Positions 44,816 to 48,049 of a stretch of DNA of 64,000 nucleotides are shown piece after piece. A program made the translations under genes and the position numbers. Source of the DNA: Nitrospiraceae bacterium (lineage in GTDB: Bacteria; Nitrospirota; Thermodesulfovibrionia; UBA6902); contig CP070632.1 in the NCBI GenBank assembly GCA_020356065.1, positions 265,284-329,283 of the forward strand. The letters run 5' to 3'. Positions within the stretch are counted from its first letter, which is position 1. The number at the start of each line of letters is the position of its first letter. The notes under the pieces are model-generated. The model was not told the origin of the DNA and searched no databases. It worked only from the letters and a program-made list of their open reading frames with translations.

Positions 44816-44971
44816 ATGGAAAAGGAAGAAATAATACTTGCCCTCATGGAATGTGACGGTGTCCAGGCAAGGGCCGCAAGAAAACTTGGTATTACTGAAC
44901 GCATGATCGGCTACAAGATCAGGAAATACAATATTGATTTAAGGGAGGTGGTGAAAGACAGCAAACAGTAG
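44816..44971 (+). CDS. Stand-alone Fis-type (HTH_8) mini-protein, 51 aa.
   Basis: MEKEEIILALMECDGVQARAARKLGITERMIGYKIRKYNIDL, the NtrC/Fis C-terminal HTH pattern AA..LGI.R..L..K. RBS GGAAAAG lies 9 nt upstream. Paralogous to 47879-48049. Confidence 0.5.
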   Translation: MEKEEIILALMECDGVQARAARKLGITERMIGYKIRKYNIDLREVVKDSKQ

Positions 44972-45040
44972 ACAGGAGTTAGCAGTTAGAAGTTACTAAA
45001 CAGAATAACAAACCCAATAAAAAAGGAGATAAGAAAGAAA

Positions 45041-45763
45041 ATGATGATGAAAGCAGGTTTGATACTATGTTTTATGTTTGTCCTGGTGTCGGTTTCAGCA
45101 CTCAATGCAAATGCATCAGAAACTTCGGGTGAGGCATCCATCGGCATATACAACAGTTATATGTGGAGAGGATTCGAACTGCATGAGGATGTAGCCATAC
45201 AGCCTTCAGTCGGGATTACCTATGGCGCATTTGGAGCTAACCTTTGGTCTGATTACAACGCTGATAGCAAAGAAGCTGTAGAAACGGACCTCACATTAAA
45301 CTATACCCACTCAATAGATAAGATAGGGCTTGACATTGGGTATATATATTACGGGCTGGATGGGGCAACTGATACTCAGGAGATTTACTTCGCAGTCAGT
45401 TACGACACACTGTTAAGTCCATCACTGACATTGTACTATGACTTCGATGAGGGAGACGGGGCCTTTATCGTTGCATCGGTTGGACATGATATACCAATCA
45501 ATCAAGATATAGCTGTAAGCCTCGGAGCCTCCATCAGCTATAACGCAGAAAGTAAATATGCTATTGGAGATTACAGTGCACTGCATAATGGTGAAATTTC
45601 AGTTTCTACAAGTATTCCTGTATACAAAGTGATATCGATCTCTCCCATAATTGCATACTCTTTCACATTAAGTGATGATGCCAAGGACGCGGTGCAAAGT
45701 CTCAATGCAGACGGTGACAACAACTTCTTTTACGGGGGCGCCAGCGCATCTGTAAGCTTCTAA
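45041..45763 (+). CDS. Gcw_chp-type predicted outer-membrane beta-barrel protein.
   Basis: 240 aa. Signal peptide, alternating hydrophobic beta-strand pattern and C-terminal ...SVSF aromatic terminus. About 240-aa porin-like proteins are known to accompany amt/glnK. Confidence 0.55.
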   Translation: MMMKAGLILCFMFVLVSVSALNANASETSGEASIGIYNSYMWRGFELHEDVAIQPSVGITYGAFGANLWSDYNADSKEAVETDLTLNYTHSIDKIGLDIGYIYYGLDGATDTQEIYFAVSYDTLLSPSLTLYYDFDEGDGAFIVASVGHDIPINQDIAVSLGASISYNAESKYAIGDYSALHNGEISVSTSIPVYKVISISPIIAYSFTLSDDAKDAVQSLNADGDNNFFYGGASASVSF

Positions 45764-45787
45764 CATCTATGAACAGGAGGAATAAAA

Positions 45788-47119
45788 ATGATACGATTTA
45801 CAGCAATATTAACCTTAATATTTACCCTGTCAGTACCATTTATGGTATTTGCAGAAGAGGCAGCACCTGCAGGTCCATCTCTCGGATTGACGATCAGCAA
45901 TGTCTGGATGATGGTTGCAACCTTTCTGGTGTTTATCATGCACCTTGGATTTGCTTCACTTGAGGCAGGCCTGACACGCTCTAAAAACACCGTAAACATA
46001 CTTTTTAAAAACACGCTGATACCGGCTATCGGCCTTTTGACCTATGCATGGTTCGGGTTTAACCTGATGTATCCCGGAACATTCAACGGAATACTGGGTT
46101 TCGCCGGATTCGGTCTCCCCTTCCCCACAGTTGGAGGGGCACTTGACCTTTCATATAATGAAGGCTATACCTACTGGACAGACTTTCTGTTTCAGGGGAT
46201 GTTTGCTGCAACCGCTGCTACCATAGTATCCGGTGCAGTTGCAGAGAGGATCAAGCTTAATTCCTTTCTGGTTTTTTCAGCCGTGTTTGTAGGCCTTGTC
46301 TATCCCATTCTCGGTTCCTGGAAATGGGGCGGTGGATGGCTTGACAGCATGGGATTCTATGATTTTGCTGGCTCAACCCTTGTCCACTCAGTAGGTGGCT
46401 GGGGAGCTCTCATCGGCGCCATTATGCTGGGTGCAAGAAAAGGCAAATATGTTGACGGCAAGATCAAACCCATACCAGGTCACAGTATGCCGCTTGCAAC
46501 AATCGGTGTATTCCTTCTCTGGCTGGGCTGGTTCGGATTTAACGGTGGTTCAGTATTAAGCGCTGATCCTGCACTTGTCTCACTAACGCTGGTGACAACC
46601 TGTATTGCTGCAGCAGCCGGCATAATAGGTGCCATGCTGACTACGTGGACTATATCCAAAAAACCTGATCTCTCAATGGTACTTAACGGCTGCCTTGCCG
46701 GACTGGTCGGGATAACTGCAGGTGCTGATCAGATGGGACTGGGTTCGTCATTCTGGATCGGCCTGATTGCCGGTGGTCTGGTTGTTGTGTCGGTCATGAT
46801 GATTGACAAAATGAAAGTTGATGATCCTGTCGGAGCTGTGCCTGTCCACCTTGTCTGCGGCATATGGGGCACCCTTGCAGTAGGTATATTCGGTGCAATG
46901 GCAGGCATGAAGCAGTTCGGTATTCAGCTGCTGGGAGTTGGAGTTTACGGAATTACCACAGCACTTGCAACACTGATCATCTTCTCAATGGTCAAGGCAA
47001 CAATGGGTCTGCGTGTATCAGAAGAAGAGGAAGTGGAAGGTCTTGACCTTGGTGAGCACGGCCTGGAGGCATATCCTGATCTTGCATTACAGCCTGGTGC
47101 CAAGAGCAGTGCTTTATAA
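45788..47119 (+). CDS. amt: Ammonium transporter (copy 1).
   Basis: 443 aa. Signal peptide, 11 TM, Amt signatures DFAGSTLVH, GAIMLGAR, WFGFNGGS. Confidence 0.9.
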   Translation: MIRFTAILTLIFTLSVPFMVFAEEAAPAGPSLGLTISNVWMMVATFLVFIMHLGFASLEAGLTRSKNTVNILFKNTLIPAIGLLTYAWFGFNLMYPGTFNGILGFAGFGLPFPTVGGALDLSYNEGYTYWTDFLFQGMFAATAATIVSGAVAERIKLNSFLVFSAVFVGLVYPILGSWKWGGGWLDSMGFYDFAGSTLVHSVGGWGALIGAIMLGARKGKYVDGKIKPIPGHSMPLATIGVFLLWLGWFGFNGGSVLSADPALVSLTLVTTCIAAAAGIIGAMLTTWTISKKPDLSMVLNGCLAGLVGITAGADQMGLGSSFWIGLIAGGLVVVSVMMIDKMKVDDPVGAVPVHLVCGIWGTLAVGIFGAMAGMKQFGIQLLGVGVYGITTALATLIIFSMVKATMGLRVSEEEEVEGLDLGEHGLEAYPDLALQPGAKSSAL

Positions 47120-47161
47120 ACTTAAGTCCCCGAACGAATTGGACGGGATATCTAACTAATC

Positions 47162-47273
47162 CTCCCCCTTGACGGGGGAGGTCGGAATCGACTCGTACCG
47201 AGAATAAGGTGGGGGGTGAATGATTGATTTGCCCCCCTCACCCTCACCCTCTCCCGATTGGGGAGAGGGGATA
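47162..47273 (+). other. Two GC-rich hairpins in the amt1-glnK1 spacer.
   Basis: CCTCCCCC-ttgac-GGGGGAGG and CCCTCTCCC-gattg-GGGAGAGGG plus a (CCCTCA)2 tract. Neither is followed by a U-tract. Confidence 0.45.
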
Positions 47274-47291
47274 TAAAAGGAGAATATTAAA

Positions 47292-47630
47292 ATGAAAATG
47301 GTTTCAGCCATTATTAAACATTTCAAACTGGATGAAGTAAGAGATGCCCTGAATAAAATCGGGGTCCAGGGAATGACCGCAATAGACGTCAAGGGATTCG
47401 GCAGACAGAAAGGACATATGGAAGTGTACCGCGGAGTTGAGTATGAGGTGAAGTTTCTTCCCAAAGTGAAAGTTGAAGTGGCAGTTTCTGACTACAAGCT
47501 CGATGAAGTGCTGAGTTCGATTCAGAGCAGCGCCAAAACCGGAGAAATTGGTGACGGCAAGATATTTGTTTACGGCCTCGAAGATGTTGTCAGAATCAGA
47601 ACCGGAGAACATGGAGAAGATGCTTTGTAA
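47292..47630 (+). CDS. glnK: PII nitrogen regulatory protein (copy 1).
   Basis: 112 aa. T-loop [19 protein letters not shown] with the uridylylation Tyr, and B-loop [11 protein letters not shown]. Confidence 0.9.
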
Positions 47631-47737
47631 TCACAGGAGAGTAATGCACACCGTTAACCTTGTATCCATGCTGGACCCCTGCGGCTTAGTAAGGGTCCAG
47701 CATGAATCTTGATACATTGATTAAAAAACAGATCGCA

Positions 47738-47785
47738 ATACAAAAATGTATTACATTTATGTAGCACAAAGCAACATAAATGTAA
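47738..47785. promoter_or_regulatory. Cluster of TACA-N4/5-TGTA-type dyads (ATACAAAAATGTAT, TTACATTTATGTAG, ACATAAATGTAA).
   Basis: Same dyad family as 42828, 44683 and 49428. Lies 45-90 bp upstream of the sigma-54-type promoter at 47829. Confidence 0.45.
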
Positions 47786-47828
47786 TTCTTTCAAGCTTCA
47801 TCTTCATAACTTTCATAATTTTATAAGC

Positions 47829-47844
47829 TGGCACGGTTTTAGCG
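47829..47844 (+). promoter_or_regulatory. Sigma-54-type promoter (TGGCAC-N5-TAGCG) for the HTH-amt2 unit.
   Basis: TGGCACGGTTTTAGCG, with GG/GC spacing of 12 nt. Confidence 0.5.
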
Positions 47845-47878
47845 TTGTCTTTGTATAAATAAGATGGTTTCATTGAAA

Positions 47879-48049
47879 ATGAGAGTAGAGACATACGAAA
47901 AAGACATCATCACAAAAACGCTCAAAGAATGTAATCATGTAAAGGCGCAGGCCGCCAAGAAACTGGGCATTACCGAAAGAATGATCGGTTACAAAATAAA
48001 AAAAAACATTAAAGTCCTGAAAGGAGATATTGAAAGTAATGATTATTAA
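47879..48049 (+). CDS. Stand-alone Fis-type HTH mini-protein, copy 2 (start MRVETYEK; the called ORF starts at 47864).
   Basis: ...LKECNHVKAQAAKKLGITERMIGYKIKKNIKVL, about 60% identical to the 44816 mini-protein over the HTH. Its stop overlaps the amt2 start. Confidence 0.5.
   Translation: MRVETYEKDIITKTLKECNHVKAQAAKKLGITERMIGYKIKKNIKVLKGDIESNDY

Follow-up and report, generated by a model that had tools for sequence, protein, structure and literature searches.

The 64-kb window analysed here (contig CP070632.1 of a Nitrospiraceae bacterium) carries a nitrogen-assimilation super-locus on its plus strand, at 42.8–53.6 kb, in which two ammonium-transporter (amt) units each begin with a very short gene for a stand-alone DNA-binding protein. 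The two proteins, mini1 and mini2, belong to a conserved Nitrospirota (Thermodesulfovibrionia) family of 50–90-aa stand-alone proteins whose single recognisable domain appears, from its sequence, to derive from the DNA-binding domain (DBD) of NifA. In the best-supported mechanism, which we hold with moderate confidence, the minis would occupy the NifA enhancer in front of the operons that encode them and exert negative feedback; the layout is probably the mark of a layer of feedback in nitrogen control that has so far gone unstudied.

Both proteins match Pfam HTH_8 (PF02954; 42.6 bits for mini1, 42.8 for mini2, cut-off 22), and no further domain is found in either. A first-pass annotation of this DNA had read the open reading frames (ORFs) at 44816–44971 (51 aa) and 47879–48049 (56 aa) as paralogous stand-alone helix-turn-helix (HTH) proteins, which is correct, and had assigned the domain to the C-terminal HTH of NtrC/Fis. 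The enhancer-binding-protein (EBP) type of the HTH stands, but the NtrC label does not. Among NCBIfam models the minis match NifA (TIGR01817) best, at 21–45 bits and over model positions 485–533 of 534 only, and the best solved relatives by sequence are the DBD of the NifA-like Aquifex protein Nlh2 (2m8g, E 5e-13), followed by NifA 9qq6; Nlh2 scores 51.6 bits versus 27.8 bits for the NtrC4/NtrC1 DBDs. Among full-length proteins, one of the closest relatives is the NifA of Dissulfuribacter thermophilus. The sequence comparisons thus place the mini domain nearest to NifA rather than NtrC and point to descent from the NifA DBD. Lacking an AAA+ domain, the minis nevertheless count neither as NifA nor as enhancer-binding proteins: the 51 and 61 aa between stop codons contain neither the AAA+ σ54 interaction domain nor its GAFTGA loop, and the scores do not reach the TIGR01817 equivalog cut-off (528.85), which describes a full-length GAF + AAA+ + HTH protein.

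The kinship extends to the recognition helix, which reads LGIT(P/A/S)RQIGYKI.KY in 120 Nitrospirota NifA orthologues and LGITERMIGYKIKKY in the minis. Aligned as TPRQIGYK (NifA) versus TERMIGYK (minis), the helices differ at two fixed positions and are otherwise identical, and a comparison of the mini with the NifA DBD encoded at the same locus, made for one locus, gives 47% identity over 51 residues. The AlphaFold2 model of a family member 92% identical to mini1 (P0004; predicted local distance difference test, pLDDT, 86.9) consists of a 19-residue helix, an HTH and an extra, less confident C-terminal helix, with no strand. By Foldseek, this three-helix fold superposes on the DBDs of Nlh2 (2m8g; template-modelling score, TM, 0.69) and NtrC4/NtrC1 (4fth, 3e7l, 4l5e; TM 0.71–0.73, root-mean-square deviation 1.0 Å; 4fth itself TM 0.73, 1.0) and, over helices B–D, on Fis (TM ~0.65).

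Each of these relatives differs from the minis in its own way. The NifA/Nlh2 DBD (Aquifex Nlh2, G. diazotrophicus NifA) shares with them the three-helix Fis-type HTH, the lack of a helix A and a recognition helix that is nearly the same (IGYKIKKY), whereas the minis are separate 50–90-aa proteins with their own start, the E/M pair in the helix, a C-terminal tail, and no GAF or AAA+ domain. The NtrC4/NtrC1 DBDs have the same fold and bind palindromic enhancers 5' of σ54 promoters, but they belong to full-length response-regulator EBPs, and NtrC4 possesses helix A and dimerises stably. Fis, from gamma-proteobacteria, is likewise a small stand-alone protein of the HTH_8 fold (~98 aa); it carries an N-terminal beta-hairpin arm and helix A, acts as a global nucleoid protein of loose specificity and is not encoded inside its target operons, whereas the minis have no such arm, start where helix B would, are encoded within nitrogen-uptake operons and, with a recognition helix that does not vary, are presumably sequence-specific. 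The structural alignment of the P0004 model with Fis spans only 52 Fis columns. According to Morett and Bork in 1998, Fis itself reportedly derives from an EBP DBD; if the present reading is right, Fis-like stand-alone proteins arose more than once from such domains, here from NifA.

The family is large. With mini1 as query, 5.8 billion proteins yielded 642 matches; the best 120 are all 48–89 aa long and contain HTH_8 only, and those with a named source belong to Nitrospirae, Thermodesulfovibrionales or Dissulfurispira. When 1.84 billion 50%-identity representatives were searched with a profile, 260 matched at E ≤ 1e-10; these are overwhelmingly short, with full-length activators first appearing at ~67 bits. 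In one genome per GTDB species, 325 mini loci were confirmed, and the best 80 are almost all from Nitrospirota/Thermodesulfovibrionia; their mini ORFs span 56–123 aa and none runs on into a long protein. Fifteen residues are invariant across the family, including the whole LGITERMIGYK turn and recognition helix. The ratio of non-synonymous to synonymous substitutions (dN/dS) between mini orthologues is 0.09–0.35 pairwise, so the minis are coding genes under purifying selection and not leader sequence. The drift-like loss of conservation that the first-pass annotation had named as a sign of a non-coding leader was not found: the ORFs are conserved in hundreds of genomes.

The start sites of the two window genes call for some revision. 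Mini2 had been given a start at 47879 (56 aa); its start is most likely ATG 47864, for a product of 61 aa, because the N-terminus read from there, 'MVSLKMRVETYEKDII...' ('MVSLKMRVETYEKD'), aligns residue for residue with the family N-terminus 'MSSLKEKIKxLEKEEII...'. The mini1 ORF stands as annotated but is a frameshift allele: compared with a metagenomic allele (P0002/L013) whose protein is 100% identical over 51 aa, it has a 1-nt deletion (AAAGGTT to AAAGTT), which shifts the ancestral ATG 44787 ('MSSLKEKIK') out of the HTH frame. Three independent Logan read-set assemblies share the deletion, which is therefore a real allele, not a one-off assembly error; the intact form is present on an ENA contig. 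With the short allele, one paralogue may be in the early stages of decay, or a shortened isoform may be tolerated, and the 51-aa product from ATG 44816 keeps the core three-helix domain.

The deletion in mini1 would also suit a reading of the minis as non-functional remnants of decayed activators, or as untranslated or cis-acting leaders, as would the lack of a Shine-Dalgarno sequence before the ancestral start in the clade of the window. This reading is largely refuted, and we regard it as hardly credible: hundreds of loci hold intact ORFs with the 15 invariant residues and the dN/dS values given above, many orthologues have a GAGGTGA ribosome-binding site, and even in mini1 the HTH frame is open from ATG 44816.

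The minis lead operons of a consistent kind. That each is the first cistron of an amt unit had been proposed for the window and extends to its relatives: in 68 of the 74 evaluable loci among the best 80, the mini is followed within 2 kb, on its own strand, by an omp240-like gene, amt, glnK, a glutamine amidotransferase gene or glnA. At six further homologue proteins, whose contigs were fetched (11 places), the order is in all six cases mini, a 237–282-aa unknown protein or BBP2 porin, amt and glnK, and several of these loci have a second mini–amt unit. Mini2 overlaps the start of amt2, as had been noted; the overlap with the ATG (48039) is 11 nt, and the orthologous locus L001 is called with the same overlap. 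Among the six exceptions, four have a BBP2 porin gene directly 3' of the mini (in three followed by an APC-family permease, in one by glnK and amt 5–6 kb on), one begins with an APC-family permease, and one has an IS605-type TnpB insertion directly downstream. A variant operon is seen at L029, L032, L033 and L084, in the order mini, BBP2 porin (missing from L084), ~630-aa APC-family amino-acid permease and PP2C-phosphatase/Ser-Thr-kinase fusion. Because of this permease operon, the mini module appears to serve nitrogen uptake other than by Amt as well, and the general rule, judged by gene content, is that minis head operons whose products take up nitrogen compounds through both membranes.

The promoters in front of the minis are conserved too. 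In an alignment of 75 distinct loci anchored on TGGCA (positions relative to its T), two dyads TACAAnnTTGTA, (t)ACAAnnTTGT(a), start at about −76 and −58, ~100 and ~80 bp 5' of the predicted transcript start. They are followed at −24 to −10 by an IHF-like box with the consensus AAATCAAnnnnTTA, which corresponds to the IHF consensus WATCAANNNNTTR, and by a σ54 element TGGCAYG-N4-TnGC (CTGGCAYGnTTtTnGC) with near-maximal information at GG and G(C). The start codon lies 27–45 nt beyond this element, often after GAGGTGA. No conserved upstream element other than the dyads, the IHF-like box and the σ54 promoter was seen in the 75 aligned promoters. The claim that each window mini lies behind a σ54-type promoter with upstream dyads therefore holds at the level of sequence: the GG/GC pair spaced as in TGGCAC-N5-TTGC is present at 44759 and 47829, and the box WATCAANNNNTTR lies between upstream sites and promoter at 44741–44753, being degenerate before mini2. 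The σ54 pattern is matched four times in the window versus 2.65 expected, which is not above chance, so that the promoter claim rests on positional conservation across the 75 loci. The dyad pattern TACAANNTTGTA is matched eight times (≤1 mismatch) versus 2.7 expected, a count reached by 1 of 100 shuffles, and the window dyads precede four units (42829, 44683, 47739 and 49430/49447). In the clade of the window the predicted transcript start lies 2–10 nt before the ATG (~2 nt for the ancestral mini1 start), and the mini mRNA is therefore predicted to be nearly leaderless.

The same type of dyad and σ54 promoter also occurs without a mini, in front of glnK–amt units (including glnK2–amt3), the 497-aa ORF (with the same promoter type at its orthologue in L017), nifB, nifH and a 107–112-aa membrane protein. 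The nifB promoters, at nine loci (L006, L024, L031, L033, L040, L042, L043, L046, L051), and the nifH promoter (L053:10359) combine a σ54 element with the tandem site GACAAAAnTGTC + ACyGAAATGTAG at about −87 and −67 and an IHF-like box, and look like a second promoter class of the same regulon. The shared architecture before nifB, nifH, glnK and amt is what would be expected of a NifA enhancer, and it reads as the signature of one nitrogen regulon under one enhancer-binding activator. Two other readings of the sites were set aside. The classical NifA upstream activator sequence (UAS) TGT-N10-ACA arises as a recognition unit only where the dyads are 20 bp apart, which is not conserved; the TGT-to-ACA spacing between dyads varies from N7 to N10, so that the half-sites are shared with the classical UAS and the spacing is not. 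Nor do the outer dyad bases seem to mark a promoter class, as TACA and GACA variants looked mixed within the mini promoters when judged by eye.

A suitable activator is found beside some minis. L053 encodes a 510-aa NifA (585.7 bits versus the cut-off of 528.85) 2.4 kb upstream of its mini, and L053, L054 and L063 each have an activator ORF of 510–547 aa ending in a NifA-type HTH within a few kb of the mini on the same strand; the two that were scanned, L053 and L054, are GAF-AAA+-HTH_8 proteins. The 120 closest orthologues of the L053 protein are all Nitrospirota NifA, with at least 79% identity. These proteins bear on a reading in which the minis are the in-trans DNA-binding part of an AAA+ activator that has none of its own, as with the DBD-less σ54 activators FlgR of Helicobacter and CtcC of Chlamydia. 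The 64-kb window, in which a six-frame motif search showed no activator gene, would fit such a split, which we nonetheless judge very improbable: all 120 of the NifA orthologues have their own HTH_8, including copies beside minis, and a mini has no obvious docking module.

The preferred mechanism joins these elements. The dyads would be the enhancer of the resident GAF-AAA+-HTH NifA-type activator; the minis, with almost the same recognition helix, would bind the same dyads without contacting σ54. Since they are encoded on the transcripts that the activator switches on, they would accumulate with induction and then displace or poison the activator at its enhancer, and the resulting feedback could cap or shape the expression of the envelope uptake machinery and possibly of a wider regulon. 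Occupation of the NifA enhancer is the best-supported reading because the recognition helix is near-identical and dyads of the same type precede nifB and nifH. According to Morett, Cannon and Buck in 1988, the separated C-terminus of NifA reportedly recognises the UAS in vivo. An isolated NifA DBD binds the nifH UAS in vitro, being monomeric until it meets DNA and dimerising only there (bioRxiv 10.1101/2023.05.30.542961), and binding of the minis to the dyads is therefore plausible. The suggestion, already made from the window, that the minis act as autoregulatory competitors is compatible with these results, and the evidence favours it somewhat.

Several observations weigh against this mechanism. 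The 12-bp dyad ACA-N4-TGT differs from the classical proteobacterial NifA UAS TGT-N10-ACA, so that NifA is a presumed binder of the dyad. No activator or NifA was found in the 64-kb window by a GAFTGA/ESELFG-type motif search of all six frames, and co-occurrence of mini and NifA is directly seen at L053, L054 and L063 only. The E-for-P and M-for-Q exchanges sit in the recognition helix and could alter specificity or affinity. The conserved C-terminal tail of the minis (..I.I+EV..) is absent from NifA and hints at an extra interaction for which a simple competitor has no use. Finally, mini1 of this strain has lost its N-terminal 9–10 residues, and its activity here is for that reason uncertain.

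Some of the same features could be turned to the opposite sign. As positive cofactors, the minis would bind one or both dyads or pair with the weakly dimerising DBD of the activator, stabilise recruitment or the nucleation of its hexamer and give positive feedback, with fast, switch-like induction of the uptake genes. NifA-type DBDs, which lack helix A, dimerise only on DNA, and one more DBD might therefore make occupancy more stable; a place at the head of the operon, behind a short or absent leader, would favour early synthesis, and the conserved tail could be a protein-contact surface. We consider a positive role unlikely, as a DBD-only occupant of an enhancer half-site takes away the tether of the AAA+ ring, no NifA interaction surface is evident, and an architectural function is already supplied by the IHF-like boxes. 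A DNA-bending role for the minis is less likely for a similar reason, the position of the bend being taken by that box.

Compared with the resident NifA, the recognition helix of the minis carries two substitutions that never vary, and these raise a further alternative, that of diverged specificity. Here the minis would be small repressors or discriminators that see a subset or variant of the sites, or other sites altogether, for instance telling amt-type (−76/−58) from nif-type (−87/−67) enhancers. The two promoter classes are indeed unlike in spacing and dyad quality, the second nif-type dyad being degenerate, and distant stand-alone relatives occur in other layouts (divergent from glnK–amt; 5' of a xanthine-dehydrogenase-type enzyme). 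We find diverged specificity unlikely, as the 75 aligned promoters hold no second conserved motif and the TACA/GACA outer bases looked mixed within the mini promoters. More doubtful still is the idea that the minis, with their altered helix (E/M for P/Q) and a C-terminal tail of their own, are specificity switches, which would redistribute one NifA-type master activator between ammonium-scavenging and nitrogen-fixation promoters by selective enhancer masking or by mixed DNA-bound dimers. If true, a mini would be a hierarchy-setting enhancer decoy; we know of none in σ54 systems.

Set against known systems, the minis represent a new small-protein family and circuit topology in which a known domain is combined with a known promoter type. 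As in canonical glnK–amtB operons under NtrC and σ54, an amt and a PII gene are here predicted to be co-transcribed from a nitrogen-regulated σ54 promoter, although the presumed activator is NifA-type (with GAF) and not NtrC. Short paralogues that retain one domain and antagonise their parent are familiar from truncated dominant-negative regulators such as Agrobacterium TrlR/TraS and from plant microProteins; those keep the dimerisation domain and poison dimers, whereas the minis keep the DBD and, by analogy, would act by occupying sites. In the nlmA-glnK-amtB operon of Herbaspirillum, too, an extra leading gene stands before glnK (PMC3023670). In our window, unlike in the glnK–amtB and nlmA operons, the leading gene encodes a DNA-binding mini-protein, a porin-like gene follows, and the order in unit 1 is amt, glnK. 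The first-pass annotation was thus justified in finding the arrangement foreign to canonical glnK–amtB loci, which have no such leading gene, and nowhere in the full-text literature searched were stand-alone HTH_8/NifA-DBD proteins described for amt operons. One candidate precedent, PMC6615313, was discarded, 'stand-alone' being used there in an unrelated sense.

Regulation of σ54 activators usually acts on their sensory or ATPase domains. If the mechanism is true, a conserved copy of an activator's DBD within the activator's own target operons would shift the point of control to the enhancer. To our knowledge, nitrogen regulation in Thermodesulfovibrionia, a group whose members reduce sulfate, are found widely in the subsurface and in many cases fix nitrogen, is essentially unstudied; for this group a regulon and an enhancer motif can now be predicted, together with a circuit that can be tested. 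Experiments appear feasible because cultured relatives seem to carry the module, as judged from a Thermodesulfovibrio yellowstonii metagenome-assembled genome (L086) and a homologue annotated to Dissulfurispira sp.; a NifA orthologue comes from Dissulfurispira thermophila.

The HTH_8 domain of the minis also turns up in other arrangements. Within one set of proteins (P0183, P0191, P0195, P0202, P0245, P0261; P0268, P0189), some have 3–6 tandem mini-type HTH_8 copies (up to 1423 aa) and some are σ54 activators ending in two tandem DBDs. P0200 (186 aa) joins a mini N-terminus in frame to an Amt fragment and is probably a frameshift or assembly artefact, or a natural fusion if real. A divergent stand-alone relative, P0253 (LGITERILDYKMKKY; L099/L100, 5001–5192), is encoded divergently to glnK–amt and 5' of a xanthine-dehydrogenase-type molybdoenzyme with XdhC, and another, P0215, has a NifA-type TPRQ helix in a context not obviously related to nitrogen.

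The features of the super-locus are collected in Table 1. Its order is the 497-aa ORF; mini1, the 240-aa gene, amt1 and glnK1; mini2 and amt2; glnK2 and amt3; a class-I glutamine amidotransferase gene and glnA; glnE lies further downstream.

Table 1. Coordinates of genes and regulatory elements of the super-locus, in window positions.
Feature	Position	Strand	Remark
Exact dyad TACAAAATTGTA 5' of the 497-aa ORF	42829..42840	+	counted as a further member of the same regulon
σ54-like promoter TGGCAACGTTTTCGCT of the 497-aa ORF	42919..42934	+	read from sequence
497-aa ORF, TIGR04552-like	43008–44501	+	
Unit 1 upstream activator region	44683..44714	+	dyad TACAATTTTGTA at 44683–44694, degenerate dyad TACTTTATTGTA at 44703–44714
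Unit 1 IHF-like box TATCAATTAGTTA	44741..44753	+	between dyads and promoter; consensus WATCAANNNNTTR
Unit 1 σ54-type promoter TGGCATGCTTTTCGCA	44759..44774	+	
Ancestral mini1 start, ATG 44787, 'MSSLKEKIK'	44787..44834	+	now a 15-codon out-of-frame ORF overlapping ATG 44816
mini1, 51-aa stand-alone NifA-type HTH_8 protein	44816..44971	+	N-terminally shortened allele
240-aa protein, second gene of unit 1	45041..45763	+	probable outer-membrane channel
amt1, ammonium transporter	45788..47119	+	
glnK1, PII protein	47292..47630	+	last gene of unit 1
Hairpin 3' of glnK1, 15-nt arms	47664..47707	+	probable end of unit 1
Unit 2 upstream activator region	47739..47784	+	dyads TACAAAAATGTA (47739), TACATTTATGTA (47752), AACATAAATGTA (47773)
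Unit 2 σ54-type promoter TGGCACGGTTTTAGCG	47829..47844	+	
mini2, 61-aa stand-alone NifA-type HTH_8 protein	47864..48049	+	alternative start 47879, 56 aa
amt2, ammonium transporter	48039..49364	+	
Tandem exact dyads of glnK2–amt3	49430..49458	+	49430–49441 and 49447–49458; unit without a mini-gene
σ54-like promoter TGGTACGCTTCTTGAT of glnK2–amt3	49503..49518	+	kept in L001, L009, L017, L037, L048
glnK2 and amt3	49560..51220	+	glnK2 49560–49898, amt3 49895–51220

The 240-aa protein of unit 1 has a signal-peptide-like N-terminus and no Pfam or NCBIfam match, and the genes that take its place in other Nitrospirota loci encode BBP2/OmpL-like beta-barrel porins; the protein may form an outer-membrane channel for ammonium/ammonia that serves Amt alone. 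The 497-aa ORF matches TIGR04552 below the cut-off and, weakly, a RelA/SpoT nucleotidyltransferase, and looks like a member of the nitrogen regulon by virtue of its own dyad (42829) and σ54-like promoter (42919). The 107–112-aa membrane protein, 'MTYLAWLIFIGAAILEVGGDAVVRKGLRG...', follows a dyad, IHF-like box and σ54 promoter at six places (L057:12182, L066:12152, L074:12111, L075:12209, L088:12140 and L089:13598).

Directly 5' of glnA in the window, neither a dyad nor a σ54 promoter was seen, and a scan of 44.4–51.4 kb for σ70 promoters and terminators returned nothing exceeding the shuffled expectation. At the place equivalent to the hairpin after glnK1, L001 has a similar GC-rich palindrome, TGGACCCC...GGGGTCCA. 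The gap between amt1 and glnK1 (47130–47290) contains GC-rich palindromic repeats, such as CCCTCTCCC/GGGAGAGGG at 47247–47269 and CTCCCCCTTGACGGGGGAG, and in L004 similar elements separate glnK from the second amt gene. Inverted repeats like repetitive extragenic palindromic (REP) elements stand 5' of glnA (52017–52110; ..TCATGCCGGACTTGATCCGGCATCC.., ..ATTCCGGC..GCCGGAAT..), and both L006 and L012 have related elements, 'GTCATTCCCGC...GCGGGAATGAC'.

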